From: Glaucostegus cemiculus
Taxonomy: Eukaryota
DNA length: 64,000 bases
Assembly: GCA_976551045.1 (NCBI GenBank)
Contig: CDPCPM010000091.1
Location: forward strand, 1,178,001-1,242,000
Reading direction: 5' to 3'
Position numbers and translations under genes: made by a program. How positions within the stretch are numbered: position 1 is the stretch's first letter; every line of letters begins with the position of its first letter. Positions 2,225-63,995 of the stretch are shown one piece after another. The notes below the pieces were generated by a model. The model made no database searches and was not told the DNA's origin. It saw only the letters and a list, made by a program, of their open reading frames with translations.

Positions 2225-2505
2225 TTAACCTATTTCTTCCCAGCTTCTGAAGCCATTTCCACTCTCTCCTCCCCTCCCCCATCTGTCTATCAACCCCCTC
2301 CTCTACCCCTCCCCCCCAACCTGGATCCATCTATTGCCTTCTGGCTTTTGCTCCATCACTTCCCTCCACATTTTTACACTAACTATCTCCCATCTTTCAG
2401 TTCAGATGAAGGGTCTCAACCAGAAACATTAACTATCCATTTTCTTCCATAGATGCTGCTTGACCCGCCGAGTTCCACCAGCATCTAGTGTGTTGCTCCA
2501 GTTTC
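2225..2505 (+). mobile_element. Penelope-like element 3' terminal fragment with degenerate hammerhead-like core
   Basis: Pyrimidine-rich segment, then cagttcagatgaagggtctcaaccagaaacattaac and gatgctgcttgacccgccgagttccaccagca, the same arm seen at 9479-9577 and after the GIY-YIG remnant near 63880. Confidence 0.65.
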
Positions 2506-7640: not shown

Positions 7641-7721
7641 GAAAACTTGCAGACGCTGGGTACAGAAATAGAACGTCTGATCAAGTGCCAGCATGAATTG
7701 GAGCAGCAACTAAAGCACTGA
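7641..7721 (+). CDS. CCDC186: Coiled-coil domain-containing protein 186, last coding exon ([26 protein letters not shown])
   Basis: Acceptor ttaattacag ends at 7640; translation matches the recalled human C-terminus ([22 protein letters not shown]...); TGA at 7719-7721; convergent with ADRB1 as in human synteny. Confidence 0.88.
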   Translation, partial: [26 protein letters not shown]

Positions 7722-9040
7722 ATTGGCACAGTTCTCAGTTTAAGCAACTCCATTGTGAATTCAAGGGAACAGGTGCTGGACAGGCAGAGATCGTACATCA
7801 CTCATGACTCAGACAAGTATATCTCATCTGCCTTCGCAAGAGATAATGTTGCTTCTACCGACACGCAGGTTTGGAATATTCATTATGCTGCATTGAACTG
7901 ACTTCTGTGAAACATTACTTTCTAAAGCAAGTTTTATGTTAACACTCCAAGTTACCAAACAAGTAACTGTAATCTGCTACAAAAATAATGAATGAAGACT
8001 GCTACAATCAGCTCAGAATAGCGACTAGTGGATGTTGATCATTCTTCTATGCTCTTTGTTGTTCTTAAAAAAAAAAGCAATGAACGCCATGTATCCCTAG
8101 TTGAGAATGTTTTATCATGAAGGTTTTGGGACTATAGTGCAATTATACAATGCAACTCTGGACATTTTTAGCTGACAACCTAAGTTTTGACTTTAGTGTT
8201 CATTTAATTTCTAAAATTTCTAAATTCAAATAGGGCTGAGGCAAATAAAGTGCATATCCATCCTAATGTCTGCCAGATTTTACTTCCTGATTTTAATGCT
8301 GACAGTAAAGTAGAGCTTTTTAGGAACTGAATAATTTAATTTCTCTGAATTTTACATATATTATGAATGCATTATGTCTGATAGGCCAAATTGCTGGATT
8401 CTCAATCCAACACATAACTCGAATCTAATAAGAAGGTCAAGGTATTTGGCTATTGATTGAATTATTTTTCATGTAAGTGTATGATCTGTTGTTATAGTGG
8501 AATATTAACAATGCTGGTAATGAAAAATAATTTAGATTTTTTGAGATATTGTAAGAAGGGTAATTTCAGTTTGTTGAGGAGGAACTGAGGATAGTAAACT
8601 GAATTCTGTGATTAATAACTAATTTGTCAGATTACTTACAAATAGTATATATTTATTACTGTGTCCACTTCAAATCCCCCAAATGGAGGATAGCATTCTG
8701 ACTTTTGCCATCGGATGAGATCTGATTTCTATTAAGAATGCAATTTTTTTCCTCCTAGAAAACCTGTTGGAAATGCACTTTAAACTCAAATTATTGCCTT
8801 CCAAATTGCACAGTTACATGTCTATTATTACAGTGCAGACTTCTGTTTTCAATATTTCAACTTTTTTTTCCAATTCATTCACTATCTGTTGCAAAAGTGA
8901 TGTAGCTTATTTTGGAAATTCATTTGTAAAATTATGTTGTAGATACATTTCTGTATAAAGAGGACAGTTTTTAAAGTTTTAATCTATTATATGTATATAT
9001 GGCATATTGGATGAATAAATGACATTTTGTGTCTTATTTT
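7722..9040 (+). other. CCDC186: Probable CCDC186 3' UTR with poly(A) signal AATAAA at 9014-9019
   Basis: AU-rich, repeat-free sequence after the stop; AATAAA followed by a GU/U-rich tract; an alternative AATAAA near 8244. Confidence 0.5.
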
Positions 9041-9331
9041 GCTGCTATGTTAAATTATCAGATAAAAAACCCTCAATTTTAAAGGGTAGTGAATTCTACA
9101 AAATGTATTTGGTTCTTTTATAATGTGGGTATTGATCCATTGTTTTGGAAGCAGCACATATTTCTTCAAAGTGTGAAGAATGGTTCCTTTTTTTTGTTTG
9201 ACATCTATCCCATGTTTTTATAGTACAAGGGATGGAGAATGACAAAGGAGACAATCAATAAATTTAAGTAGCATTCCTTCCATTTTGAATTAACTGATTA
9301 ATTTTATCCAACAAGCGAAAGAGCAAAGAAA

Positions 9332-9578
9332 ACAGAGACACAAGAGATTCTGCAGGTGCTGGAATCTGGAGCAACACACAAAATGCTGGAGGAACTCGGC
9401 AGGTCAGGTAACATCAATGGAGGGAAGTAAAATAGTTGATGTTTCGGGCTGAGACCCTTCATCAGGACTCATGACCAGGTCCTGATGAAGGGTCTCGACC
9501 CAAAACGTTAACTGTTTATTTCCCTCCATAGATGCTGCCTGACCTGCTGAGTTCCTCCAGCATTTTTGTGTGTCGCTG
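9332..9578. mobile_element. Fold-back Penelope-derived insertion with two head-to-head arms and a 13-bp TSD
   Basis: Arms ~9370-9468 and ~9479-9577 are imperfect inverted repeats; aagagcaaagaaa is repeated directly at 9319-9331 and 9579-9591. Confidence 0.8.
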
Positions 9579-9619
9579 AAGAGCAAAGAAATTTTGTTTT
9601 CCAAGCCTCAAAGTTCTTT

Positions 9620-9870
9620 TGTGCTTTGCAACTACTGAGGAACATTACAAGTGTAATCACTGTGCTAATGTAGAAAATGTGGTTGTTCATGTGTACTCAG
9701 CAAGATCCCACAAACAACAAATAGATTGCTTGTTTCATTAATATTATGCATAGAATATAGACCCTGGCAGTGTCCCTGTTTGTTTTTCTTTAAACCGTGC
9801 TAGGAGTGCTTTTATGACTGCCTGAGAGAGCAATTTAAAGTTTCATCCCAAATCTTTGGCGATGTCTTCT
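9620..9870 (-). mobile_element. Deu-domain SINE, degenerate
   Basis: agtgtaatcactgtgctaatgtag...cagcaagatcccacaaac resembles the reverse complement of the SacSINE 3' half. Confidence 0.55.
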
Positions 9871-10959
9871 GTGATATTTGGAAAGTACAATTGCTGCCAC
9901 TAACAAATACAAACTTCCAATTTTGTTGGCATCTATTTCAGAAAAGAAATTGGTGTTTTTCTAGTCGGGTGCTTGGATTTGACACATTTATAGTCACTAT
10001 TGGTAACTGTTCAAGAGAGAACAATGTGAATAATTCACTCTACCAACGTTAGGGAATAAAAGGTTTTGAGGAAGTTCATTGGGGTGGTAATCAGAAAGGG
10101 CAGTGGGAGTGTACCTAAGGTGAAATTCCTTCTTAAACTCCTATTTATAAAGAATCACAATCGCCTAATTCATTTTTCTAGAGAAATTTTGTGAGCAATT
10201 GAATACCTCATGCATATATTGAATTGAGAATTTATTATTCTTATACATAGTAAAATTCCTATGGTTTTACTATGTCCAAGTTTTTAGTTTTCCTTTAATG
10301 AGAATGTGAGATGTAGATTGATGATCAAATTTGTTACATATAACATTTGAAATCAGCAGGAAGTTCATGTCATAAACATTCCCTTAAACGTAAGTGATTA
10401 TCTTTCTGATTTTTGAAATGTAAAATGACGTTCCCATGCTCTGCCTTTCAACTTCTGTAACTCCGATGCAGCATGATACTAAAGGTAATCATGTGAATGG
10501 GAGTCCCTTGTAGGCTGATTCTTGCTTCTGATTTCCCTGTCATTAGTAAAGAGCTGTTTTAAATCCCTTCTTAATTCACTTCTTTGGGACTTTTCTAACT
10601 CTTGGTGAAAGTTAGCAGAGAGAACAGGGAAATTTTTTGATGTGATTTAAGAACATCTGTCCCTTGCTTAACCAAAAGTCGGCCATGAGTCTCGCATTTC
10701 TTCATTGCTGTCCATGCTCATTTGTAATGCTTAAATTTGGACATGGTGGTGTGTTGATGGCTGTGGTTCTGCATTATGATCTTTATACTTTGAGGAAAGT
10801 TTTGATACCTAATAATATTTAGGCTCAGGAGAGAAGAAGAACTCTTTCATTTGAATCCGAGAAGGATCAGGAGCAGTTACAATTTCTTTATTAAATGCAA
10901 TGTTTGTATTGTTTCAGATAGTTGTTTTTTTGTCTGCTAATTACATCCTAAACCTTTGA

Positions 10960-11690
10960 CTTTTAGCTTTGCTAGGATCTCCACTATTCTGTGGAAGGAT
11001 GGTCACAAAGGAAAAGGAGGTTGGTTATCTCTTTAACAAAGGAAGAACTCAGTACAGTATGAGAAGAGATCAAGATGTAAAATATATTCAAATGGAGATT
11101 TTTTTTAAAAAGTTAGGGAAAGAAATCATTGGTGAGAGTTGTCTGTGGACACCATAACATTAGCTGCACTGCAGGATAGAGTATAACTCAAAGGAATATT
11201 GGGGTTAGAAAGAACATTACTGCAACAATTATGAGCAACTTTAGTCAATTTTTGACCAACTTAAATAAAGATTAAAGTAATATTGAGAATAAGTTCATAG
11301 AGTATACTTGGTAAAGCTTCTTAGCTAGATACAACATGGAACGAACAAGTGAGCAAGCTCTTCTGGATGTGGGCCATGTTCAATCAGACAAGATTAATTA
11401 ATGATCTCACAGCGAAGAGTGATTATAACATGGTAGAATTTCATACTCAGTTTGAGAGTGAGAAATTTCCATTCTGTAAGATGCAATATAAAACTGTGCA
11501 AGATGTGAGCTCATGGCATCAGGGGCTATATATTAACATGGAAAACAAAAAGAGAGTCAGGATAAATGGGTCATTTTTAAAATGGAAAGCTGTAAATAGT
11601 GGGGTGCCCCAGGGATCAGTGCCAAGCCCTCAATTATTTACAATGTATTAATGATTCAGAAGTAGATTATGCAAGGATAGATGGTAAAAC
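10960..11690 (+). mobile_element. Degenerate CR1 LINE ORF2 fragments
   Basis: Translation includes KRVRINGSFLKWKAVNSGVPQGSVPSPQLFTMY (RT domain) and SDYNMVEF (endonuclease end). Confidence 0.75.
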
Positions 11691-14939: not shown

Positions 14940-16175
14940 CTAGAACTGCGACTCTCCATCTTCCTGACGGAGGTTGTCCTTCTGCGAGTCCACGTCGCCC
15001 CCGTTGCTTTCCTGCACCCTGCTCCACTCCGGCCAATTCTCCAGGCTGCTGGGATCCAGAGTACCGCCAAACATTCCCGAGCAGCGGGACAGTTCCCCAG
15101 AGCCCGAATACAGTCTGCTGTCCGCGGCGCTGGGACAAAAGAGTAACTTTTTAAAGGCCGCCCTGAAGTCGGGACTCTTGCAGTAAATGATGGGATTGAA
15201 AGCCGAGTTGACATAGCCGAGCCAGTTAAAAAACAGAAAGAGCTTGTCAGGGACTATGCCAGGGCGGAACGCCTTCACCACATTTGCCAGAAAGAAAGGC
15301 AACCAGCAAAGGGTAAACGTCCCCATAATAATCCCCAGGGTCTTTAAAGCCTTGTGGTCCCTGATGGCGATAATCCTGGAAGGTCTCCTTCGGCCTGCCC
15401 TGCCGTTTGGGATGAAGTGGCTGGTATAAAACCTTCCCTCACACTTGTCGATCTTCTTCATCTGCTTCTTGGCTTCTTGAAAGACGCGGGCATAGACGAA
15501 GATCATGATCACCAGGGGTAAGTAGAAGGAGATGATGGATGAGGCAACCGCGTAGGCTTTGTTGGTTACGAAGTCGCAGCAGCATGGGTCATTGTAACAG
15601 CGAATGGCATCGGGCCCGTCGTCTCTCCACCAGTGCATCATGATGGGGAGCAAGGAGATGAGGGCAGAAATCGCCCAGACCACACACACGATCACCCGCG
15701 CCCTGGCTTTAGTGAGCAAGCTCTGGTAACGGAAGGGAGAGGTGATAGCGATGTAGCGGTCTATGGCGATCACGCACAGAGTCTCGATGCTGGCTGTCAC
15801 ACACAGCACGTCAACTGAAGTCCACATTTCGCAGAAAACCGAGCCATACAGCCAGTTACCTCGCACCACCAAGGTCGCGCCGAGTGGGACCACTAGAAGT
15901 CCCATAATCAGATCTGCACAGGCCAGAGATACAATGAAAACATTGGTTAGGGTCTGCAGCCGCTGGTTCTTTGCGATGGCATACACCACCAACAGGTTGC
16001 CCAGCACTATGATCAGGACGATGACTGCCATGACTGTGCCCATGCCTATCACCCACTGTTCAGAGAAGTCTTGCTGATGAGGCTGGTTTGGACTTACCCC
16101 GTTTGCAGGATTGACAAATATTATTGCGGTGGATTTATTATTATGGCAATCCATAGAGGAGAATCCGTCTCCCAT
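14940..16175 (-). CDS. ADRB1: Beta-1 adrenergic receptor, intronless, 411 aa
   Basis: Class A GPCR with DRY, TM3 Asp (SVDVLC), TM5 serines (ASSIISF), CWLPFF and NPIIY; beta-1-type RLQTLTN, RYQSLLT, MHWWR, RRPS and TM7 LFLFFNW; ES-x-hydrophobic C-terminus; strong Kozak acaATGG; lies between NHLRC2 and CCDC186. Confidence 0.95.
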
Positions 16176-16294
16176 TGTAGGTGCCGCTTTGTGGAGGAGC
16201 CGAGAGCAGGCACGAGTCTCATTTGCACGTCTCCCCGCCGATGTTGCCTCCTTCCCTCATCCTGTTCCTTTGGCACCAGCAACAGGCGGCTTGC

Positions 16295-22089: not shown

Positions 22090-23670
22090 AAATAGCAGTC
22101 ATGATCTCAAAACATAGTTTTGAGAAATATATTTTGGTGGAGATGTTCTTTGTAGGCAGGCCCCTGAGATTGAGAATGATTTGGTTCCAATCTAGTTTTG
22201 TGGATCCTGAGGTGGCTCTTGAAGCCGATGCGGGAACTACAGACTCCCCCACGGATGGGGCTGACACTCTCAACTGTTGAGTAGTTTGTGAGATGCTGCA
22301 GGGCTTCTGTGTGTTCCTGGTGATTCCTGGACCACTTGGTGCAGTTATGGGCACGAGGCTTCCCAGGAGTCAGTTGGGATGTTGCACTTCTTCAAGAAAA
22401 CTGAGCACATCCTCAAACTTTTTTCTTTATCTATCTTGTAATCTCCTGTGACAGAGCTCAGGATGGTGTCAGGGTGTCGGGCAGCCAAAACACATGGCCT
22501 GCTCAACATAGCCAATCGATAGTAGATAGGATCTCAGTGCTGGGGGTGTTAGCCTAGAAGGTGATGCTGATGTTGGTTTGCTTATCCTTCAAACGAACAT
22601 GGAGGATTTTGCATACAGATTGGTGGTATTTTCCCTGTGCCTTGAGATACCTGGAGGTAATCCAGGTCTCAGAATGAACAGGAGGGCAGGAATAATCACT
22701 GTCTGCTAAACCATAAGTTTTGTGCCACATCAGAGATCTAGATCTTCCAGTATCCTTTTCAATTATCCCCTTAAGGCTGTGCTGGTATATTGAAGATGGT
22801 GGTGAATTTTATCACTGAATGCTGGCTCCTAAGATGTGGGAAGTTGTCCATGTTCTCAAGGGTCTTGTCATGAACCTTTATTGTCCAATGGTATGTGGGG
22901 CAGCCGGGGCATGTTGGTGGAGGACCTTAGCCTTGTGGATGCTGTGTTTAAGGTCCGTCCTCTCATGTGCTTTGGTGAATGATTTAACAATGTCTTGGAG
23001 CTTGTCCTTAAACCATGCACAAATGCAAGTGTCACCTGCATCCTGCAACCCCACAATGGAGGCTCAGGGGACCTTGGTCCTCAAGTGTAGGTTGTCATAG
23101 GTTAAAGAGTTCCCATTAGTTTTGAAGATTTGCTCCAATTCTACAGAAAGTTTTTGGTGGTGATGTGCAGTATTGCATTGAGAAAGAGTAAGAAAAATGT
23201 TGCGGAAATTACGCAGCCTTTTTTGGACAGCAGCCTTCACTGAAGTTGGCCTTGTAGACCCATTGTTTAGTATCATGGCTTGCATGCTGTCGAGAAGCAA
23301 ACCATGATACTAACCAATGGGCCTCCAAGTGAACTTCTGTGGGTAGCAGAACTGTAGGAGGATGCTTTACAGTCCCTCCTGTTTGATGGAGTGAGGTTGA
23401 TGAAGGCCATGTGCAGTGGCTCCCTGCATTTTTCTTGGAGTTGTTGCACAGTGAAGCATGTATCCACTGTGCCTCTGGGTGGACATAATCTACACTGTGA
23501 TTGAGGGGAATGGCTGTTTGAGGAGGACCCAGGCTGTGACTTTCCCTGTGGCAGACAGCAGGGAGACTTTACCCCGACCAACCAGTGTATTTACCGCAGA
23601 GTGAATAGTGTTACTGTTGGTGTCAGGACTCATACTCTTAAAGCTCTTAAAGGGCCAGATGTCTGTTGAA
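22090..23670 (-). mobile_element. Degenerate RTE-clade (BovB-like) LINE
   Basis: Minus-strand translation RGTVDTCFTVQQLQEKCREPLHMAFINLT matches the RTE RT signature; many frameshifts. Confidence 0.75.
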
Positions 23671-24463
23671 AAAAAAATGTATGAATGAACCATTATAGAG
23701 TTATTTCTAGAATAAAATAATAGTGTAAACTTATTTATGATATGTAAAAATGTTTATGTAGATATATCGTTTGTAGATGTACATATACAATAGAGTGCAG
23801 AACTGAATATACCTTTTATTATTAATTTTCATGTTTTATAGTGCAGTATACCCATCTTTCAACATTCTAAGTTGCAGTTGTTGTGAGACCACATATCTGG
23901 TAATGCTCACATTTGTCTTGACTAAAACTAATTACCCAAAGGGAAGAAGGCAGGGTGTAAAAGGACTGTGTTGGAAAGGGAGGTATTGAGAGGGTGCACA
24001 GTTGTGCATCTTCTACACCTGGTCTTTATTAATTATGTAAGTAATGGTCATGACACACAATAGTTAAATGCACAGCTGACACCAGACCAAAGGACAGAGA
24101 TTTTAGAGGGGGGCAGTCAAAAGCTCATAACAAACTTCCACCTGGTCCAATTAAAAGCAGATGAAGTTCAATAGAAACAGATGTACTTAATTGGATAATA
24201 TAGGACTTCACAGTGTAAAAGAGAAAGGATATCACTGCAGTTAGACACTGAGGTGGGCCTCATGCAAGAACTGGTTTATACATTAGATCACCTGAAAGAT
24301 CACTGGAATTACATTGCCATTCGTCACAATCAGAAACTGTGAGCTGACAGTTTGGAATAGATGGTTTACGTATCAAATCATCTGAATTCAAAATTGCAAA
24401 GTCAGAGTCATTTCCTATTCACGGAATTGAGGAAACATTTGGGCAGGAAGACGGATTGATAGA

Positions 24464-24680
24464 GAAACAAAGGACTGTGGATTCTGAAATCTAGATGAAG
24501 AAGCAACAAGATGCTGGAGGAACTCAGCAGGTCAGGCAGCGTCTGTGGAGAAAAATAGATGGTCAACATTTCGGGACTGAAGGTATGAAGAAGAGTCCTG
24601 ACCTGAAACATTGACCGTCTGTATTTCTCCACGGATGCTGCCTGGCCTGCTGTGTTCCTCCAACAGCTCATTGTTTCTTC
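24464..24680. mobile_element. Second fold-back Penelope-derived insertion with a 15-bp TSD
   Basis: Inverted arms (gctggaggaactcagcaggtcaggcagc / gctgcctggcctgctgtgttcctccaac); flanks agacggattgataga (24449-24463) and agactgattgataga (24681-24695) match at 14/15. Confidence 0.8.
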
Positions 24681-26994
24681 AGACTGATTGATAGACTGAA
24701 CATATTTCAAAAAGAAAAAAAATCATCTGAAAACTGTCATAGGAAGATGATGGGAATGGAGTTTTGAAGGATGATATCAGATGAGATCACAATCAAGGCA
24801 CCTTGATTTTTAAATTAAACTTGTTTAAAACCGTATTACTCTTGAAAAGTGAACCAGTGACCGTAAGGGCTTTAAGACATGAAATAAACTTTATATATAT
24901 GCAACTCGTTCTTTCTTTTGTTATGTGAATATAATAATCTGATTACAGGTCATATAATGGATGTTGAATTTCAAAATTATTTTTTTTTCTAAATGCAAAA
25001 CGAATCACTATTTTCTGGCATTAGTGTAAAATACGTTGCTGTTTGCTAAATGCTATTTAAGAGGCAATCAGATGGGAAGTGGACCCAGAGGACTGTCAAT
25101 GGTGTGGACTTTTGTCTAAGAATGTGTTTAAATGCTATGCTCTAAAAAAAATTATACCTGTATGATGCCTATTCCTTAGCAACCTTTCTAACTCATGCCA
25201 CTATAATGTGGGTGTGAAACGTGGAGAGTATAGCATGATTCATGTCGAAATGAAAATAGCAATGGGGCAAACTGATGTAATTCTTTACTATTTGAACATC
25301 AGTGTAACAATTATGCTGCTTTTCTATGTAAGAGTGTTATTTCCATCCTTGTTTCACTTGGAAAAATAGGAAAATGTTGGGAATATTAGGTAGTTCATGT
25401 TTGGACTAATATCGACAATCTACTTCTGGTGAATTAGATGTAGTTTTCAAAAGGTTTATTATTTTATTCAAATCTGTTGAAATTGATTCGCATTGATTTG
25501 TAGGAAGTAAAACTAGTTAGTTTGAATGCTTTTAGGATGTCTTGAATAAACATCTCTTAATAATTCTGGTGGGGAATGTTCATCAATTTCACCAATTCAA
25601 TTGAAAAGTTGTCTATCAGATTTATTAAGCTAAAAGAGGTACAACTGTGATCTTAACAAAGGGATTAATTTTAACATAAATAGCATTGATGAATATACAT
25701 ATTTCAAACTGATGAAAATTAAGATTAAAATATAAATTCTTAAGTGAACATTAATCAATTATTGGTTTGTTTCATTTAAGAAAGGTTGGATTGAATTATG
25801 AAACTGACTTTGGTGTTTTCAGGGTAAAATTTTTGGCTAAAGAGCAATTAACTGCTGTCACAGTAATTGACCACTTTCAGTTTAGAAGCTTTCATTATGG
25901 AACCAGTAAGTTATAATCCTCCAATTTAAGGCCCTGTATCTTAACAAAGAGGCGTCATTCACATATTCTGCCTCATTGTGTGAGCGTTCCTGGGCAACAA
26001 CAATAAAAGGTAAAGTGACAGATGAAGGGATAAGCTACCTAAAGGTCTGTGTGGATAATGACAACCTTTAGATAAAATTACAGGAAGAAGACAAGCTAAC
26101 CATGTGAATCAGCACGTAAGTCTTGGAGATGTACCTCATCATGTTTGCTTTCATGATCTCTGCTTTATTGTAACCACAGCTTAAAACCATAGTTTAACAT
26201 GACTTAAATGTTCTTACAGTTGGATTTTTAAAACAAAATGTTTGATGCATTAAATTTTAAATGGGCTGCTATTTAACCTGTACACAAGAAGTCAAAGGTT
26301 TGGGAAGAGAAATCTTTGAACATCTGCCTCTGCAAAACAGAAGTATCCTAGCAATCGGGGCTTAAATGAAAAATAATAATTTACTGAACCTTAAAGGTAC
26401 CAACTGTTAATTTATTGTTCAATGCAAAAGGTACCACAAGCAATACTTTCTACAGATATGTTTGGTAAGAATGTGCATTTGAAAAAAATGCAGTGAGGGA
26501 TGTGTGTTAAAGTAACCTTTAGTAACTCTGTAAATAAGATCCTGAAATAGCTTGATAGAAAAACATAGCACCCAAGGTTTGGAAGATTCTTGGAAGTTCA
26601 TGGCTATCAGAAATAAGAAAGGTAAAATACTGGGAGTCATGTTGAGGTGAGAGGCCAAATAAGAGGTGCATGCTTCCCCCATCTGCTGCTTGTAGATCAG
26701 AAGAGAATGTGGAATGAGGTGAATGAGATATGAGAAGGCAGAGTACATAAAAGCATACATCATCTTTAATCATCTCTGCGCTGGTTCTCCATTAATGTCG
26801 GTGCATGTCTTCCAGGCACAATCACATTGCTGCTGGCAGTGATTTTGTGCCACCTTCTCGTGCGAGGCAGAGGGAAAGAGTGTTAGTGAGTGCAGATGGT
26901 TGATGGTTCCATCAGGTTTAAACAGCTGGGAGAGTGTGTGAGTTGTGCAATGTGGATGTGAATGCTGGAACAGTGGTAAGAGTAGGAGGGTGAA

Positions 26995-27405
26995 GTCATC
27001 AAGACGTACAGCATGGAAACAGGCCCTTCGGCCCCCTGAGTCTGTGCTATCAACCACCCATCCACACCAATCTTATATCAATCCTTTTTTTTTCCACTCA
27101 TATCCCATCATTATCAACTTCCCCCAGTTTCTACCACTCACCTACAGCCTAAGGGCAGTTTAGTGGCCAACTAACTTACCAACTTGCACATTTTAACCCA
27201 AAACATCAACAGTTCCTTTCCTCCCTCAGATGCTGCCTGACCTGCTGAGTTCCTCCAGCAGACTGTTTGTTGCTGCAGATTCCAGCATCTGCGGTCCCTT
27301 GAGCCCCCTGTCTACCAACTTGCACATGTTTGGGATGTGGAAGGACACTGGAGCACCAGGGGAAACCCACACAGTCACAGAGAGGATGTGCAAACTCCAC
27401 ACAAG
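26995..27405 (-). mobile_element. V-SINE (HE1-like) with CR1-type tail, interrupted by a nested insertion
   Basis: tgggatgtggaaggacactggagcaccaggggaaacccacac (reverse complement of the V domain); tail acagcatggaaacaggcccttcggccc. Confidence 0.7.
27192..27312 (+). mobile_element. Single-arm Penelope-derived insertion nested in a V-SINE, perfect 15-bp TSD
   Basis: taccaacttgcacat at 27177-27191 and 27313-27327 flanks the gatgctgcctgacctgctgagttcctccagca arm. Confidence 0.8.
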
Positions 27406-28064
27406 TGAGGCAGATGAACGTTAGATAGGGATTGTAATTGAGCAGAAATCATTAGGTGAATGCTGGAGATGTATAGTGTGGATGGAAATGAGAGATAAGA
27501 TTTATTGAAGTCTTTGCTGCTGTGGACCATGTAAGATTTTTCCGGCTGTTTTATTAATGTCCAGAAAGTGGCACTCCTGACATTGGCCCTCTTAGTCCCC
27601 ACCTCCTGCTTCCTGATGTACCTGGGTGGCCTCTGGGGCCCCTTTTCATAGAAACCCACCTCCTCCTGTTCACTTTGTCAACTATGGTGTCCAGAGACAT
27701 GCCTGAAAATTGTATTCGCTCTCAACAGAGTTTCCACTACCTTTTCAAGTTCTGGTATGACCCCTGAAGGAACTGGAAGGAACGAGCACCTTCCCTTTGA
27801 GAGATAAAGGTGTGGGTTCAATGCACGGACTAGATTCTGTGGGACCTATGCATTCACCCATCGAATAATCATTGCTTTGACAGTTTGCTTTGCATCAGGC
27901 TGATGCTACAATTATGAAAGAATCAAAGCACAAATTATATATGCAGATTAATCACCTATCTTATTCCAGCACAAGTTTTCCAACACCATCTAATTCCTCT
28001 TCCTAATTTTTTTTTTTACAACACTAAGCCTTCAAAATTATTGCATGGAGATTGAAAACATTAA

Positions 28065-28753
28065 GATTGCGGAGACTGAGGAAAGCGAACTCCCATCCCT
28101 CAGTTATGAAAACTTTCTATAGAGGGACCATTGAGAGCATCTTAACCCAATGTATCACTGTTTGGTTTGGAAGCTGCTCAGCTGCTGGGTGGAAGACCCT
28201 CCAGAGGATAGTTAGGGCTGCGGAGAGGATCGTAGGTGTCTCCCTTCCATCCATCGCAGACATATACAAGAACCGTTGTGTTAGGAAGACCAAAAATATA
28301 ATGGCGGATCCTTCTCACCCCTCCCATCATCTCTTTACAATTTTGCTATCTGGGAGGAGGCTCAAATGTATCAGGGCGAGAACGACCAGGCTGAGCAATA
28401 GCTTCTTTCCGCAAGCCATCAGGACTGCAAACTCTCTCATTCCTCCATCTTCCTTGTTAACACTAAGGGATGCTAGGTGCACAGAAATGCACCAGCACTT
28501 TAAATGCCCGCCACCAGCCCGTTCACTTTAATAACTATTTATTTAATTACCGGCCGTATTTAATTTAACCTGCCATATTTAATTTAATTTAAACTTCCGT
28601 AGTTTTTAATGTTTTTTTTGTTCAATGTGTCTGTGTGTCTCTGCTGTTTGTTATTTAATGGGACGAGCACTTGAGGAGGATGGTATCTCGCTCCTATGCA
28701 TACTATGTATGTATATGGTTGTGACAATAAAACTGATTCTGATTCTGAATTCT
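28065..28753 (+). mobile_element. Rex1/Babar-like LINE 3' end, 5'-truncated
   Basis: ORF LRRLRK..FYRGTIESILTQCITVWFGSCS..LQRIVRAAERIVG..DPSHPSHHLF..SGRR..RTTRLSNSFFPQAIR; ends aataaaactgattctgattctg. Confidence 0.8.
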
Positions 28754-31156: not shown

Positions 31157-31450
31157 ATAAGATCTTTATTAGTCACATGTACATCAAAACACACAGTGAA
31201 ATACATCTTTTGCGTAGTGATTTTGGGGGGGCAGCCCGCAAGCGTCGCCACGCTTCCGGTGTCAACATAGTATGCCCATAACTTCCTAACCCGTACGTCT
31301 TTGGAAACTGGGAGGAAACCGGAGCACCTGGAGGAAACCCACACAGACACGGGGAGAATGTACAAACTCCTTATAGACAGTGACTGGATTTGAAACTGGG
31401 TCACTGGCGCTGTAAAGCATTGCGCTAACCACTATGCTACTGTGCCTGCC
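31157..31450 (-). mobile_element. tRNA-derived V-SINE, subfamily with gtacatgtgactaataaa tail
   Basis: Head ggcacagtagcatagtggttagcgc, V domain gtgtgggtttcctccaggtgctccggtttcctccca; nearly the same as 38282-38570. Confidence 0.85.
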
Positions 31451-42929: not shown

Positions 42930-43545
42930 AAGCAATCTATTCCATTGCACTTCCAGCTCGACTTTTTATTCTACGATGCCTCCTTTTTCTTCAACTGAGG
43001 CTTCATCATCATCACGTTTGTCCTATTTCCCACATTTCTGTTCTCAAACCTTTTAGAGGCCCAACAATTGCAAAGTGGTTCCACTCTCAGCAGCCTCCAC
43101 ATTTAACAGGTCACTTCCACCAGTTCCATCTCCAGCATAATGTCATCACTAAATGCATCTCCTCCTCATTGGCTGTTCTTTGACCCTGTTGTCAGCCCCT
43201 CCCCATTGCCAAATTTTGTATTTTTCCCTTTCCTGCCATTCATTCCTTCCAGGTGAAAGATCAAGTTATTTGTGCAGCTCAAGATGTGCTCTCTTCTATA
43301 CTGGGTATTGATATGTTGTATTGAATGCAGTTCGTGTGATCATTTTGTGTAATATCTCCACTCGGTACAGGAGTGTGACTCTGTGTTTTTGGTTGCTGTC
43401 ATTGTATTTCCTCTCTTTCTCCCCTCCGATCTCTCACTGTTTTAATGAAACTCAGTGGAAGCTTAAGAAGCCACATCTCATCATTTAATTAGATACCCTA
43501 CAGCATCCAGGCTGAACATTAAGTACATTTTAGATCACAGCCATC
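42930..43545 (+). mobile_element. Degenerate Penelope-like element, GIY-YIG endonuclease region
   Basis: ccttccaggtga, ctcttctatactggg (LLYxG), gtgatcattttg, aagcttaagaagccacatctcatc and accctacagc parallel the copy at 63390-63990. Confidence 0.55.
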
Positions 43546-48659: not shown

Positions 48660-48830
48660 TATTATTCACCCTCTCCCTTCTCTGCAACTTAAGACCCTCT
48701 TTGCCAGTTCTGATGAACAACCTCTGACTTGAAATATTAGCTCTGTTTCTCTTTCCACAGATACTGCCTGACCTGCTGCGTTTTACTGTTCTATTTTTAT
48801 TTCAAATTTTCATCATATGCAGTTATTTTG
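48660..48830 (+). mobile_element. Old Penelope-derived terminal arm
   Basis: ccagttctgatgaac...tgaaatattagc...cagatactgcctgacctgctg. Confidence 0.55.
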
Positions 48831-50820: not shown

Positions 50821-51454
50821 TATTCTATATAAATTATTTAAAAAGCTGCTTCAGACAGAGACAGCTACATCACTAGAGTGAAAGGCAAAGTATTTACCAC
50901 TAACCAATGAAATGCAAAAGGTAAAGCTTCTTTCTTGGATCATTGAAAAATATTGGCAGTTTCTCATTGCTTAACAGTGAATGTAAAACTCTGGATAACT
51001 CGTAACTTTTTTAAACAATTATTTTGTTTTATTTTCTCGACAGCTCTACTAGAAAAAGCAGAAATCATGAACTGCAGATTACAGCCAATCTATAGTAACA
51101 AAGGGCTAAATTTGATAATGAATAATTACTTTGTAAAATTCAAAAGCACAGATTGGATCTTATACAAAGAATAATAAAAAAGTCCATGTACACGGTAAAA
51201 CAAGGTAATATATTACACTGTATTCAGAACACTCCCTTTCCCATTAGAATTTTTTCACAATAGGGTATCTTGGAAGAGTGGTTATTGGATCATCCTTTCC
51301 TCTACATGCAGGATGCATCTTAGCTGTGTCATTTTGAGCCTACCACATCCTCAAAACATCCTTTGCCTACAAAAGACATTTCTGTATTTGAAACAAGATA
51401 TAAAGTAATTTGTGTTAGAAACTTGACTTGCCTCTGGTGAAAAATGTAACTTAC

Positions 51455-51664
51455 CACAGAGACTGTCTTCATTTCCAAATCTAGCACTTTAACTTGGTGA
51501 TTGTTGGTATCAGCTACATAGAGGACATTCCCATTTTCACCAACACACACATCTCCTGGCTCATTAAAAGTAGCTTGGTTGAAGTCAGGACCAACTACAT
51601 TGCTGGCTTTACCAGTTCCTGCTAGTGTAGTACATTGCTTTGTTTTTGGATCTATTACTTTGAT
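51455..51664 (-). CDS. NHLRC2: NHLRC2 exon ([18 protein letters not shown]...FNEPG...[23 protein letters not shown]), 210 nt
   Basis: Acceptor ttttgtattcag, donor gtaagt; NHL repeat LYVADTNNH. Confidence 0.93.
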
Positions 51665-52339
51665 CTGAATACAAAATATGGAAATATATATTTAAATGCC
51701 CCATAAAAGGAAACATTTAGGTAATCACAAGAACATAAAGACTATTTACATTTTTTCATAAGGAACTTATTAGTTTAATACTGTAAAAAGAATGTGTATT
51801 GCCATGTCCCTTGACATTCATAATAAAGCATACATGCTATTATAAAATGAGTTATCTGTAACAACTTGTGAGTATCTATAGGATACCGATGTATTGTTGA
51901 ATGATCAAAAGGCCTTTAATTCAAGGTTTTCCCATCATACACAGTCACTTAAATATAGGCAATTTTTGGTAAGTTTGCTAACAGGGTCTGAAGCCCATAG
52001 AGCTTATTAATCATTGAGACTCATGAATTTGCAGTTTTCATTTCCTTTCTATTTTGATGCCAGACTTACAGCCCTACTGTATCTGAAGTGGTTGCTATAA
52101 ATTCAGATTTCATATTAGATATACATATATATTTAAATCAATGAAAACATACACTACAGAACAAGACCTTATTAACCTTCATCATATATACAAAGATGAA
52201 AAGTTTATATTTCAAAGAAATATTTTGATATAATACCAGTATTATTCATACTTGTGAACTGGTGATAAATTTTATCCTAAACCACTTCATTATACCTAAA
52301 AGAAAAAAGAAAATAAATTGATTGACAATAAAGACATGC

Positions 52340-52462: not shown

Positions 52463-54894
52463 CTGAAAATTAACAAAACATGCTTTACTTTATTATAAAT
52501 AGTTTTAAATAGTTTGAAATGATTTTTAGGATAGAAGTTGGATCTAATTGTATCTGTTTTGCATGTCCAACAAGATTGCCTGAAAAGCATCTTAAGTAGT
52601 AATTAGTTTTCCTATTTTTCAGATAGTGTAAAATGGACTTTAGGCTCTTTGTATTTGGCACTGAGAGATTTGATACTAATGTTAAGGATCTGGCCAATCC
52701 TGAGTAGTGAGAGCTTCTCAAGATTTTCCAGGCATGAGTGCAGAGATCATTACTGAGAAGGTAAGATTTTTAATTCATGCAGAGGGAAGATGACAACTTG
52801 TGCTCCTTCTAATAGTACTGCACATTTAATACTGCCAGCAATGATTGGCTTGTCTCCTTGTCTCTACCCTTTCCTGGTATTTATCTGAGGGGCACTGCCA
52901 ACAGGTCAGCCATAGATTTGGAGAAGAGTGTAGAGGTGCCTTGCCAAATTACTAAAGACAAGTACACAGACAATTTCTGATCAATCTTGGGTCACCCATT
53001 GAAAGTGCAGAAATGTACAAATGACTCCAGATAGATACCCCTGTACCTAAAATAACAAAAACTTCTAAAAGTAATTGAAGTGAATCCAAATATTATAATT
53101 ATTTGTATTCCTGCATTTTAATTAGTTCCTCCACCTCTCTTTAGTTTGGTTTCTGTTACAGTATTTTCCCCCCAATCTTTTTAATGAACTGGGGACAGAT
53201 TATGCTCTGAAGTGGAATATCAAATAGAGTGAGGTGTCCAGAGTTACTTTAAATTATCTGTCTTCACTGCTACAAAATAAATGGATTCAACTATCAGACC
53301 ATTTACATGAATAGTTTGTTTAAAGTATGTGAAGGAAATGCTTTTCAAAAGTATTTACTTACAAAATTGTACACTAAGAATGCATTAGCAGGCTTGCTAT
53401 CTAGGTGATATATTTAACATAATTTTCTGTCCATTAAATTCAAATACAGCTGAGCAATGATCTACCATTACCAGATGTATGACTGGGAACAGTGCTAAAT
53501 GGAATCATGCTGAAAAATAAACTTTTCACGCCACTTTAGCTTGACAGAATAGAAGAAGGTAAGTGAAACTCCCTTTTTTCACTATCATCAAGATTCGAGA
53601 CCTCCAGAAGATGCAATGAGATAGCAATTGTAATCACATCAGGCCATTTCAAGCACTGATTCTGAAACCAAGGCAAAATGACTACTTACGGATAAGATTT
53701 TGGTTTTCCAAACAATTTGGGCTAAGGTAGATCACTAAAAGGGTACTCGCTCCAATCTTAAAAGATCTTCAGATCATTGCTGACCATTAAACTTGAAAAG
53801 TTCCTTGTATGATTTTTACCGCATAGCAGAATAATCAAGTTAGAAATATTGGAACATATTAAATACAAGATGAATATACATTATAGTCAAAATACATAAC
53901 AGACCAAAATTGAAATGGATATCAAAACTGAAAATAAACAGTAAATGAGTCACTTATCATACTTGTATTTTTTTGGTCATTTCATAATTAAGGATTCTAA
54001 ATTTAACTAATATTTACAAACTGGCCCAAATTTTCCATTCAATGGTAGGAAGCTCACAACCTTGTAAAACTCTGCCTAAAAGACTAGGTGGATCATAGTA
54101 TGACTGTCCCCATTTCTAAACAATCTGGAACTGTGGCTTTTGTAGGGGATCTGTAGCATCCAACAACACTGATGTTATTAAGCAAGATGAGCAGCCAATT
54201 GGATTAAAGAATTCTTAGATAGCACACCAGGAAATAAAAGCTGCCAACCATACTTAATTTCTTAAAACGCTTTACAGAAAATTAAATAAGGATTCAGACA
54301 ACAAACTATTGGGATTAAGGTAGAAAATGAAATATAAATAAATTCTAAAACTAAAGTTAACACGTGTAAACCATTAAAAGGTTTAGTCTCTATTCCAATG
54401 GAGCAACAACTTGCATAAATAAAGTTAGTTGATTAGGGCCAGAGAGAATTATCAATAGTAATAATAGGTCAGATCACATCAGCATCTGCTGCTGGTTCTG
54501 ACTGGAAAAATCAAATTCTGACACTGAAGTCCAAAAAGGCTGTATGTGTCAATCTGATTGGGCACTGGCCGACACGTGAAGTTTAATGGAGGGGCTGAGC
54601 CTTGCTGGGATTTGCCTCTTGTATCCTGCACAGGGTCAGATATGGCACACAGTCTGAGATCCCAGTAATTTCAATGGGAATTGTAGAAGAAAACACTAGG
54701 AGGTAAAGGGGACTTAACTTTTTTTATTACAAAAAAATTATCTTGCTACGCCGTAATGTTAATTATTTATAATGTTTAATGTACTTTGGTTAACTAAGTA
54801 ATTTTTGAGAAACTATTCTACTGTAAATCATTTTTAAAATGTCTCTGAATGTCAAAAACATATTAATCTTGAAAGATTGTTAGGCAACTTGTAC

Positions 54895-55852
54895 AACTGG
54901 CAAAGCTCCACTCCTAACTCCATCTACGAGTTTGCAGATGATACCAACATTGTGGGCCGTATCTCAAACAGCGACAAGTCAGAATACAGGAAGGAGATAG
55001 AGAACTTAGTGGAATGGTGTCATGACAACAACCTGTTCCTCAATGTCAACAAAACGAAAGAGTTGGTCATTGACTTCAGGAAAGGGGGTAGTGTACATGC
55101 ACCTGTCTCCATCAATGGTGCTGAGGTCAAGAGGGTTGAGAGTTTCAAGTTCCTGGGAGTGAACATCACCAACAGCCGGTCCTGGTCTAACCACATAGAT
55201 GCCACAGCCAAGAAAGCTCAACAGAGCCGCTACTTCCTCAGGAGGCTGAAGAAATTTGGTATGTCCCCTTTGACTCTGACCAACTTTTACCGATGTACCA
55301 TATAAAGCATCCTATCTGGTTGTATCATGGCTTGGTATGGCAAATGCTCTGTCCAGGACTGCAAGAAGGTGCAGAGAGTTGTGGACACTGCCCAGTGCAT
55401 CACGGACACCAGCCTCCCCTCCTTGGACTCTGTCTTTACCTGTCATTGTCTTGGTGTAGCGGACAGCATAATCAAGGACCCCACTCATCTGGGACATTCT
55501 CTCTTCTCTCCTCTTCCATCGGGTAGAAGATACAGGTGCCTGAGGGCACGTACCACCGGACTTAAGGACAGCTTCTACTCCACTGTGATAAGACTATTGA
55601 ATGGTTCCCTTATACAATGAGATGGTCTATGACCTTATGTTCTATCTTGCGTGACCTTGCACATTATTGCACTGCACTTTTTCTGTAGCTGTGACACTTT
55701 ACTCTGTACTGTTATTGTTTTTACTGTACTACATCAATGCACTTTGTACTAACTACGTAACTGCACTGTGTAATAAATTGACCTGTACGATCAATTTGTA
55801 AGACAAGCTTTTCACTCTACCTCGGTACAAGTGACAATAATAAACCAATACC
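54895..55852 (+). mobile_element. Rex1/Babar-like LINE, 5'-truncated RT C-terminal half plus 3' UTR
   Basis: FADDTNIVGRISN..YRKEI..WCHDNNL.LNVNKTKELVIDFRK..FKFLGVNI..FLRRLKKF; a single stop separates this from AWYGKCS..DPTH.GHSLF..PSGRR; tail aataaaccaatacc. Confidence 0.88.
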
Positions 55853-59564: not shown

Positions 59565-59628
59565 TGACAGCAACTTTGGGATTTCCCCTCAAATGTAATT
59601 TAATGTGGAAATCCCAAAGTTGCTGTCA
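59565..59628. repeat. Perfect 22-bp inverted repeat with a 20-nt loop
   Basis: tgacagcaactttgggatttcc (59565-59586) / ggaaatcccaaagttgctgtca (59607-59628). Confidence 0.92.
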
Positions 59629-62600
59629 GTGACTCATCCCACTCCCACTAGCTCCATCTTTGTAGACTACTCCAGCACAATAAAGGGAATTTAGTCAAAA
59701 TGACTAAAATTTCATTTTTTTAAGCAAACTATTCCAGCTGTAAAACATCCTGTTATACTTAAATGTTATACTTTGGCTGCTCTGTTAGTTTGATTACATC
59801 AGGGGTGCTAAGTACCATGGCTCCCTTTGTTTTGACATTTGACAGAAACTGATGTCAGAAGAAGGGAAATGTTGACCCCAAAAGGAATCTAGACCTTTAC
59901 AGGCAGCTTCCTTCAAAACCCAAGGTGAGTGCTGCTTATCACAAAATCCAGGCCAGTAGTTTACTATGGCATTCAAAACTACTTATATCTCATGCAACAC
60001 ATGTATTTTACAATATTTGTTTCTAAAAGCTAAAAGTTCTCAAAATTTGCCAATATATGCTGTAAAATGGATTTATGCTTTTCTAACATAAATTGGTGAA
60101 TTTTGAGAACCTTTAGGCAGTGAATTATTGACACCTACTTCTGGTTCCCTGTGTTTGATTACATGTGTATTTTCGAGAAACTAATCTCAATTTAAAAGTC
60201 TAACGACAGAGTGTTCCCTGCATTCCATTCTAATAACTGCATAATCCAGGCACTTCTTTTGTTGCAACCTCTTAATTTCTTAGGCTGCCAAAGAGCCCCC
60301 AGTTATTGAAGAAGATGGAAGACCATGTGCATTAAAAATTTAACACCTTTAGTACTCCACCTTATCCCTAATCTACCTGTCAAGACTATTGTGCCTTGAT
60401 GAATCCTGAGAGTTTTTCTAGAATTAACCAGAGTTAGATCTCCTCACTTTCAGGCTTCACAACTATGTTATCAATTGTTGAGATTCAAAATGAAATTGAT
60501 TTATTTGCAGAAAATGTACTACATAAGTAGATCACAATACCAGGCTCAGTCTGGGCTCTGCACAAATTATCTTTATCTCAAGGTGAAATATGTTAAGAGA
60601 TAAGGCTGAAGTGGCAGTTGTATCTTGAATGTAAAAGAAGGACCTAATTCCCTTAACGCAACAAACGGGAGCATAGCACTGATCACTTGACAAACAATTC
60701 AGATGGAGTGGTGTTATAAAATATATAATATTAAATAGTAAAATGTAGCTGCTGAGATCAGACCAAAAATTTATACACATTTCTCGGAGGTGAAACATTT
60801 GAATATTGTGACCTTGAAGTGCTCTGATGGGGAAAAAATATATGCCTTAAGCAATCTGAAAGATGGCAGTTATGAATAATTACTACTATGACATAGAATT
60901 GTTGATGTATGAAGTTTAACCCTTCTTTACATCTTGTTTCAAGAATGTGATAATAATGAAATTGAAATAATGATATAAACTATTAAAAGTATATGGATCG
61001 ATTCATCAGATCAAAACATTAATTGTTTTTTAACATTCTAATGGAAGACACACTGTGTGATGCAGCACTTTTGTACATAGAGCTTAGATACATACATATG
61101 CAGCTTCCTGACAACAGGCTCTGATTAGCTAATTATCCATATATGGGTAGACGTGCAAATGCTTCAGCATGTAAGTGTGCAGAGACAATCAATATCACTG
61201 TTAATGACTAAAAAAAGATGCAAGGGGAATGAGATAGAACAATATATTACATAAAGCAGAAAGGAAGATTATTATTATGGCAATTCACAGAAGGGCCCTG
61301 TTTAACAGTGTCCTTTATGAGTAACGAAATGCCTGAAACAATTTTGAAAAATGGTATATTTATTGTCTGAATCCTTCAAGGGAATGGATATCCGGGTCCT
61401 GTCAGTTTTGGGCAGCAACCAGTCCGTTAAGATTATCCCTGTCTGCTAAGGTTACACCTAATGCTTTCAGGTTATCTAAGATAATTTATGGAAAAACCCA
61501 CAATGAGCCTGGTGCTGAGAGGTTGCCAAGCTAATATTGGAGAAGAAAGGAGTAGTTCAGATATAAATTTTGTAAAGCCTTTATAAACATTATGTAGTAG
61601 ACTTTAAATATTGGTGACAGCTATAATGGGAGATCCAGCCATTTAGTTTTAGAAAATATCTGGCAGCTTGTAGCTGGAAATGTATCCTGGGTTAGCAGCC
61701 CAGAGGTTTGCTTGTCTTCAATCTAGTACAAGATAGGTCTGTTCTTGGTTATGGTGTGGAGTGTGGAGAGCAGAGGTACCTAATGTAAAGATGGTTTAGG
61801 TTGTATCTGAGCCTAGAGGAACAAGCCCCACAAAAATGAATATAATTTTATATTCTGGACTTCTCCTTGACAGGAGCATTGGTGCATAATACGGAAAGCA
61901 TAGTCAACTCGTCTTTACAGTACTGCCCTGAAATGACAAAATGGGCCCTCTGTTTGATCGACGTAGTTAAACAGCCTATTGCTTGAATAAGTTGGGTACT
62001 CTTACTCTTCTGGATCTGGTGTTGGCTGGAATGCCAGGAATAAAATGTTCTCTCTTTCATCCTGTTTTCACACAGCAACTGCAGTGAAAGTCGGCCACCA
62101 TTTACTGCCTAAATTAAGTGAAACCATCGCAAAAGCTGTAGTGCACTCAACATTATAGCCATGAAGCCAGAGTCAGGCAAAATAACCTGGTGCCAAGTGA
62201 TGGGGCTCTGTAGTACCTGATACCATTTGTTGCTTGGTGAACTGAATGATCCATATGCCTGCTATTCTAGTCAATACAAACTTCAGAAAAGCAGATCATA
62301 CACAGGAATTGTAATCTTACAGCAGTACTGGGAAGAGCATGAGTGAAGAGGGATGCCCTGCTGGTATTGTATTGCATTTTTCCCCAGAGAACAACAATGC
62401 AGCTAACTAGGAACAAAGCAGCAGTCAAAGTCAAAACTGTGTTGATTACGCAAAAGACCTGAGAAGATAGCAAAGCTGACGACAAATAATAAGGAAGTAG
62501 GCATTTTAGACATCTATTTTGGTTGTGAATATATCAAAGGGTAAGCATGTTATGTGATATTACACATAAAAGCACCAGCACAGCTCAACTCCACGATATA

Positions 62601-63389: not shown

Positions 63390-63995
63390 AATGTCTTTCC
63401 CTTCTCACCATTAGCAACCCAAATAGTCCTTTCAAGTTGAGCATGATTCACTTGCACTTCTTCCACCTTAGTGTTCATGACATGGACTCCTCTGCATTGG
63501 AGAAACCAAATGCTATTTGGGTGATCATTTTGCAGAATTCAGTCTACAAACAAAATCCCGAGCTTCAAGTTGCCTGTCACTTTAATTCTCCATTCCACTC
63601 CCACACTGACCTCTCTGTCTTTGGCTTCCTACATTTTCCCAATGAAGCTCAACAAAAGCTCAAGGGACACCACATTGATTTTTTTTCTCTCACTGCCCTC
63701 ATTCATCTCTTCTGGCTAACTAATCTCCTCTTACATTCCTCTGGGTAGATTTTCTATGATTAACTAGACAGCACTGAAATCAATTGTGTTACCTAGTCAA
63801 CCTCAGTGTCCATCCTAGCACAAATATTCCCTTTGTTTTCTCCACCTCCACAACTTAAACCATGCTTGTTTTATCATTTTAGCAGTTCTAATGAAGAGTC
63901 ATTGAAATGTTAACTCCGTTTTTCTCTCTCTCTCCCTACGGATGCTGCCTGACCTACTGTGCATCTCCTGAATTTATAGGTTTTACTTCTGATTT
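63390..63995 (+). mobile_element. Penelope-like element: GIY-YIG endonuclease remnant plus 3' terminal arm
   Basis: attggagaaaccaaa (IGETK) and PELQVACHFNSPFHSHTDLSVFGFLH..NEAQQKL, then cagttctaatgaagagtcattgaaatgttaac and gatgctgcctgacct. Confidence 0.75.

Follow-up and report, generated by a model that had tools for sequence, protein, structure and literature searches.

A short insertion with two inverted hammerhead motifs is very probably a truncated Penelope-like element

The insert, its borders and the neighboring transcript

The window, that is, the whole stretch of 64,000 nucleotides that was analyzed, has a GC content of 37.8% and a CpG observed/expected ratio of 0.27 and is vertebrate DNA. 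It holds the beta-1 adrenergic receptor gene (14940-16256, minus strand), an exon of NHLRC2 (51329-51691, minus strand) and the short last exon of a gene upstream of the insert described here (7641-7721, plus strand). A first, sequence-only reading of the window had labeled this last exon CCDC186, a putative assignment that fits the human gene order; a Pfam search with its 25 amino acids gave no match. Decayed LINE-type reverse transcriptase (RT) fragments were seen at 28028-28531, 54838-55526 and 11421-11639 (RVT_1 and PF09004 matches), and imperfect palindromes unrelated to the module under study at 23238-23341, 59565-59628 and 60030-60116.

The insert consists of 247 bases (9332-9578) between two 13-mers, 9319-9331 and 9579-9591, that are identical at 13 of 13 positions. 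Its border-anchored repeat score was 13, a value reached by none of 400 random border pairs (maximum, 8), in support of the earlier claim of a retro-insertion with a target-site duplication (TSD). The last three A residues of the left 13-mer overlap the end of the family and likely represent microhomology. Between the repeats lie two arms in head-to-head orientation. The left arm (9369-9469, minus strand) is an inverted, 5'-truncated pLTR end, which carries a one-sided 3' extension of 37 nt, defined by alignment of the arms and referred to here as the tail (9332-9368, minus strand). The right arm (9479-9578, plus strand) is likewise a 5'-truncated pLTR end and has no tail. Tails of the same 37-nt type were also found on copies at 24464 and 27311. 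The two 5' ends meet at a junction (9470-9478) that contains two short palindromes; it is unlike the pyrimidine tract found upstream in the family except for the letters CCA, nor does it read as that upstream sequence in reverse complement. Aligning 9369-9468 (minus) with 9479-9578 (plus) revealed 14 differences, with 10 transitions and 2 indels among them, so that the arms are about 86% alike. The hairpin of the plus strand folds at -170.6 kcal/mol (z = -18.6), and none of 200 shuffled sequences folded as well. What had been described as a palindrome of about 250 bp with a 13-bp direct repeat is thus a perfect repeat around an incomplete palindrome, the left arm being longer by the 37 nt of the tail. 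Immediately to the right of the insert, the interval 9634-9720 showed raised read depth in all four sequencing runs of relatives, suggesting a further low-copy repeat.

RNA evidence came from one run of a relative, organism B, of which 18% was read, at low depth. On one strand, depth was 5 to 14 at 7720-8937, 3.3 at 8938-9024 and 0.08 at 9025-9111, and it was zero at 9112-9285 and again from 9721 on. The depth ends at an AATAAA followed by a GU-rich tract (9014-9019, plus strand), likely the poly(A) signal of the upstream gene. In this run the upstream mRNA thus stops about 300 bp short of the insert, though nascent read-through may extend further. The insert itself showed high RNA depth on both strands, which derives from other copies of the family. 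Our best explanation is that the insert lies outside the upstream mRNA and has no function of its own. The sequence-only reading had predicted a double-stranded RNA (dsRNA) of about 100 bp just past the 3' end of CCDC186. The position past the 3' end of the upstream gene holds, but the dsRNA is hypothetical, none from this locus being seen in that run, given the two intervals of zero depth.

Two minimal hammerhead motifs and their decay

Each arm contains a minimal hammerhead (HHR) motif. The core CTGATGA was confirmed at 9482-9488 on the plus strand and at 9465-9459 on the minus strand, and the order of elements is the same in both arms: the 5' strand of helix I (GTC), CUGAUGA, a bulged A, helix II, GAAA or AAAA, a 2-nt loop, UH and AAC. 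Helix II comprises 4 bp (GGGT/ACCC) with a 4-nt loop, and both its G10.1-C11.1 pair and the bulged base are present in the two arms, whereas the palindromic positions 15.2-16.2 are found in the right arm only. The left motif (9435-9468, minus strand) retains all core bases (CUGANGA, GAAA and UH, the latter as UC at 9439-9438); its ACGU palindrome is lost, leaving loop 3 non-palindromic. The right motif (9479-9512, plus strand) has lost G12, replaced by A at 9502, and reads UU at 9508-9509, with U at position 17. In both arms the closure of helix I fails, as pair 2.1-1.1 is C.A, a place at which three other copies have U-A. Helix I is GTT/AAC or GTT/AGC in three other window copies, and GAC occurs in the arms at 24.5 kb and in the read consensuses; GAAA and UH are also present in other window copies and read consensuses. 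Reverting CpG-type transitions had been expected to yield a GTC/GAC helix I. Neither arm carries the required G, both showing C.A, and the GAC is found in other copies instead. The arms of the insert fail the hammerhead test at helix I although their family carries the motif.

When the window was scanned with a minimal-HHR descriptor, the left core was found at one deviation and the right core at two, in agreement with the proposal of a minimal type I hammerhead of the Penelope-like element (PLE) kind on each strand. In 20 shuffled windows, the background was 0.25 matches per 64 kb at one deviation and 3.5 at two, corresponding to 0.001 and 0.015 per 273 bp. A chance occurrence at the insert is unlikely, while across the window such motifs are not rare at two deviations. 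The Rfam scan that had been suggested as a check found no hammerhead: the whole window gave no match at the gathering threshold, and none of the eight sub-threshold matches on 9200-9700 at E <= 10 was a hammerhead. These eight (five miRNA hairpins, two snoRNAs and msr) were dismissed as generic hairpin matches. The Rfam models presumably do not cover minimal hammerhead motifs.

Among five copies of the family, 79% of cells were paired, a level that 55 of 500 shuffles reached, and one pair was changed on both sides; covariation was not significant. The density of differences between the arms is much the same within the HHR (5 in 34 nt) and in the rest of the arms (9 in 66 nt), which indicates neutral decay. 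A single transcript of the insert would contain one sense core, buried in the hairpin at an opening cost of 29 kcal/mol, and the two cores are therefore unable to help each other. Judged from sequence, both ribozymes are probably dead, as had been supposed, the right one through G12>A, the U at position H17 and the helix I mismatch, and the left one through the helix I mismatch and the loss of the ACGU palindrome. The two HHR motifs are decayed passengers, a by-product of a head-to-head inverted pLTR.

Two further features of the arms were observed. Between the HHR and an ATG, at 9513-9534 (plus strand) and at the same place in six other arms, most arms hold a 19-nt pyrimidine tract ending in YAG. 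It resembles a further splice acceptor, accompanied by a branch-point-like TTAAC/TTGAC that overlaps the 3' strand of helix I, and may be an alternative acceptor of the PLE intron. In the left arm, a frame at 9307-9462 (minus strand) is open from an ATG inside the hammerhead core through the tail, owing to a 1-nt insertion at 9429 that is missing in about half of the RNA reads (107 of 220). A protein search with this frame returned two candidates, none at E <= 0.1, and the idea that the tail encodes the start of an open reading frame (ORF) was dropped as unsupported.

Other copies in the window and in relatives

A profile was built from six arms, leaving the copy at 63.9 kb out of the training set. 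Searching the window with it recovered eight matches with E < 1e-7 plus a ninth with E 0.14, whereas the reversed window gave no match; two of the eight lay outside the training set, namely 48712-48782 (E 4e-9) and 63891-63974 (E 3.4e-8). One more fold-back of the family lies at 24449-24695, flanked by a 15-bp repeat with one mismatch (14/15). Its left arm is tailed, its right arm untailed, and its center differs from that of the insert; in this old copy, the arm opposite the tailed one extends about 15 nt further 5'. Counting TSD-flanked palindromic copies, as had been proposed, thus added one within the window, but with another center, and a monomer is TSD-flanked as well: this 5'-truncated copy with a tail (27177-27327, plus strand) sits between perfect 15-bp repeats (15/15). 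The region around it (27100-27420) adjoins, and probably lies within, another repeat family, with copies near 31300, 36150, 38420, 40430 and 45800. A longer monomer (2330-2504, plus strand) includes upstream pyrimidine-rich pLTR and the HHR motif, with no tail and no TSD found. In all, flanking repeats of 13 to 15 bp were present at three of five insertions tested (null maximum score, 8 in 400) and were not found at the copies at 2.3 kb and 48.7 kb, for which borders were guessed. All five short arms in the window start within the 5' two-thirds of the HHR, at about -3 to +21 when the G of helix I is +1, the scissile bond being at +31. Of the eight window arms, three continue a long way upstream, and one of these three reaches an endonuclease frame. 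No head-to-tail tandem units were found among the window copies. An exact 29-mer of the arm had no match in viral and metagenome contigs, and a degenerate HHR pattern had none in metagenome, genome and viral contigs.

The endonuclease frame belongs to the copy at 63.9 kb. There, a diverged HHR module (63883-63974) lies 200 bp behind decayed and frameshifted GIY-YIG-like frames (63472-63682) and, like them, on the plus strand; the whole feature spans 63472-63974. The frames match the C-terminal part of protein P0001 with 56% identity over 48 amino acids (tblastn 4e-12, within the window), and they also match P0003. Pfam GIY-YIG gave a weak match on P0001, below the cut-off (E = 0.008), and no match on the window frames. 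P0001 is a chimera with an RT part of another, unrelated type. A search with P0001 returned 1070 proteins; among the 120 of them listed, the similarity followed the RT part and none matched the endonuclease part. A word-based protein search with the endonuclease fragment yielded no candidate. The window and the protein searches yielded neither a PLE reverse transcriptase nor an element of full length; the RTs returned by the searches were of other types. The insert has no endonuclease ORF, and indeed no ORF is left in it. The endonuclease motifs may be of the Neptune type. By sequence, the link between the module and a PLE endonuclease appears good, but it runs through a diverged subfamily and not through the direct parent of the insert. 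A second, more decayed GIY-YIG-like fragment was seen at 43272-43512 (plus strand), with no HHR module found behind it.

Reads of relatives were then compared with the locus, four of 24 sequencing runs being aligned to 7720-10320 at 80% likeness. Organism B differs by 3 to 6.5% in the flanks. Its left contig passes the left repeat and reaches 24 bases into the insert before it stops, and its right contig starts 30 bases inside; both overlaps are below the 31-letter bar. Contigs entering the insert from both sides are the pattern expected of a filled site, and organism B probably shares the insertion. The search for empty orthologous sites that had been proposed brought none to light: the joint of 9331 to 9592 was not among the 15 joints listed, a further 781 lying beyond the listing, and pieces from organisms A and D do not reach the insert junctions. 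The 13-bp repeat is a putative TSD.

Summed read depth on the insert was 4 to 5 orders of magnitude above the flanks. This is not a copy count, but it signals a very large and abundant family. In runs X2 and X12, from two relatives, 8 of the 16 contig pieces listed cross the center, and no two of these agree in net length offset (range, -11 to +5); none of the eight pieces listed for run X1 crosses it, and 185,894 pieces lay beyond the listing. As the contigs spanning the center vary in length, the palindrome looks rebuilt at each insertion and not copied as a unit. In addition, for three runs out of four, X2 being noisier, the consensus of loose ends upstream of 9479 is a pyrimidine tract that ends in CCA before GTCC, which means that the usual neighbor of the core is the pLTR and not a mirror arm. 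Joints between opposite strands (9374-9383/9557-9567) were dismissed as evidence for fold-backs, because reads that fit either arm can yield them.

Origin of the insert

The comparisons that follow draw on excerpts of the cited papers. According to Craig et al. (2021; PMC8557442), PLE insertions consist of an inverted 5'-truncated copy with a 30- to 40-bp tail at one end, and Arkhipova et al. (2013; PMC3846280) described head-to-head pLTRs with junction palindromes, 8- to 10-bp TSDs and a 31-bp tail. The insert resembles these EN+ PLE insertions in its head-to-head inverted truncated copy, its one-sided tail (here 37 nt), its putative TSD and its junction palindromes. It differs in that both copies measure only about 100 to 140 nt and contain no ORF, and in that the putative TSDs of the family are 13 to 15 bp long compared to 8 to 10 bp in the rotifer cases. 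The shape of the insertion has therefore already been described in print for PLEs, and the locus is ordinary.

The ribozyme motif fits as well. Cervera and De la Pena (2014; PMC4209133) reported minimal HHRs in metazoan PLEs, including dual motifs that lie on opposite strands at a distance of 100 to 700 bp. Activity was low even in dimers, and in the Penelope element of Drosophila virilis an intron was reported to end at helix I. The family shares with the minimal type I HHR described there CUGANGA, the bulged base before helix II, G10.1-C11.1, GAAA, the palindromic 15.2-16.2 and the lack of a real helix III, and, as in D. virilis Penelope, an AG resembling a 3' splice site abuts helix I. Compared to the Schistosoma mansoni HHR, helices II and I of the insert are shorter (4 bp versus 7 to 8 and 3 bp versus 4 to 5), and unlike the dual HHRs of that study, its cores are only 17 bp apart and both damaged. 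Sharks and rays are not named for minimal PLE HHRs in the excerpt of that paper. We found no publication on this PLE family in cartilaginous fishes; Repbase and Dfam, which lay outside the search, probably hold it, and the supplements of Li et al. (bioRxiv 10.64898/2026.07.22.740005) may list chondrichthyan families.

A mechanism is suggested by the work of Frangieh et al. (2024; PMC11167929) on a PLE protein for which a dimer is predicted. It nicks both strands and extends them, with RT starting at two internal sites, and HHR cleavage is not needed. Like the insert, Poseidon PAc of Anolis shows two 3' ends separated by the tail, an A/T-rich target and an HHR that is uncut in the template. Its RT start sites lie 111 to 118 nt into the ORF; no ORF start was found for the family of the insert.

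Taken together, the insert is very likely one dead-on-arrival insertion of an EN+ PLE, cut to the last 100 to 140 nt on both sides. A PLE RT-EN protein would have nicked the two strands of an A/T-rich target with a stagger of 13 nt. PLE RNA that had not been cleaved would have served as the template, each 3' end priming reverse transcription at one or the other of two internal start sites separated by about 37 nt. Neither cDNA would have gone beyond the 5' edge of the hammerhead, and the ends of the two would have been joined via a short spacer; later, neutral decay of the arms, mainly by transitions, would have inactivated both ribozymes. Each arm spans the scissile site (5' ends at -3 to +21, cut at +31), so the templates were uncut there.

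Within this PLE reading, the second arm could also have arisen by fold-back self-priming, with a cDNA or antisense RNA copying itself, and not by a second target priming. Self-priming is the preferred interpretation of junction palindromes in the excerpt of Arkhipova et al. (2013), the center of the insert holds two such palindromes, the starting points of the arms lie at most about 3 nt apart, and position 1.1 is an A in each arm. Set against this, the junction is not the reverse complement of upstream family sequence, and the fold-back at 24.5 kb, in which each arm has sequence that the other lacks, would need a later deletion under a single copy-back; given the age of that copy, it is a mild argument for two primings. 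We consider self-priming a serious but less probable route and moderately favor twin priming.

The template may also have been special. Under a more speculative version, which we regard as rather improbable, the stubs would not be random truncations. Their template would be a discrete RNA of about 140 nt whose start is the edge of helix I that resembles a splice acceptor; this RNA would be a minimal HHR-headed PLE parasite, copied twice by a dimeric PLE protein, once per nicked strand, with no ribozyme cleavage. Going further, a short non-autonomous unit, either an HHR-headed RNA of about 140 nt or the whole palindrome, could be mobilized in trans by PLE proteins. This is in keeping with the 5' ends of the five short arms, with the upstream tract and CCA before GTCC, which resembles a 3' splice site or an RNA start, and with the depth on the insert, which is no copy count; moreover, animal retrozymes have been proposed to be PLE parasites (bioRxiv 10.64898/2026.07.22.740005, excerpt). 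However, the clustering of 5' ends rests on five arms and is biased by the short reference, the centers of fold-backs vary between the two in the window and among the eight offsets in relatives, and three of eight window arms run far upstream, one to the endonuclease frame. As for retrozymes, the animal non-LTR type (PMC7229834; bioRxiv 10.64898/2026.07.22.740005) is, like the insert, short, non-coding and PLE-related, with a type I HHR, but it forms head-to-tail tandems with canonical HHRs and circular RNA, in contrast to the head-to-head pair and minimal motifs found here. We thus judge mobilization as a short unit unlikely. The proposal of the sequence-only reading, a mobile unit of its own that derives from a ribozyme and bears one core per strand, is not supported, given the monomers and the fold-backs with other centers in the window and in relatives.

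Selection for a dsRNA or cleavage element in the read-through or termination zone of the upstream gene is a very improbable reason for the persistence of the hairpin. Its place about 300 bp past the mRNA end, its probable presence in organism B and its folding energy of -170 kcal/mol would suit such a role, but the one RNA run of a relative shows zero depth at 9112-9285 and from 9721, G12 is missing from the sense-strand core, and the arms have diverged by about 14% without compensatory changes, the 10 transitions giving 6 G.U pairs and 4 mismatches on the plus strand. Finally, a MITE or other DNA-transposon derivative, which the long inverted arms and the flanking repeat might recall, can be dismissed: a MITE has equal terminal inverted repeats and moves only as a two-ended unit, whereas the arms are unequal, the module follows a GIY-YIG-like frame and the TSD-flanked monomer at 27177-27327 largely refutes a two-ended unit. 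The insert is very probably a truncated EN+ PLE insertion and neither a retrozyme nor a MITE.

As a single locus, this decayed PLE stub outside the neighboring mRNA matters little. Its value is that of a clean, minimal example of PLE insertion geometry, in which the putative TSD, the two alternative 3' ends and the uncut hammerhead all fit the reported in vitro behavior of the anole Poseidon protein. The abundance of the family could let a genome-wide census decide how inverted pLTRs form. If the stubs do come from a discrete short template, tallying 5' ends and pairs of arms would read out PLE integration itself, telling twin priming from self-priming and showing what part the HHR plays.
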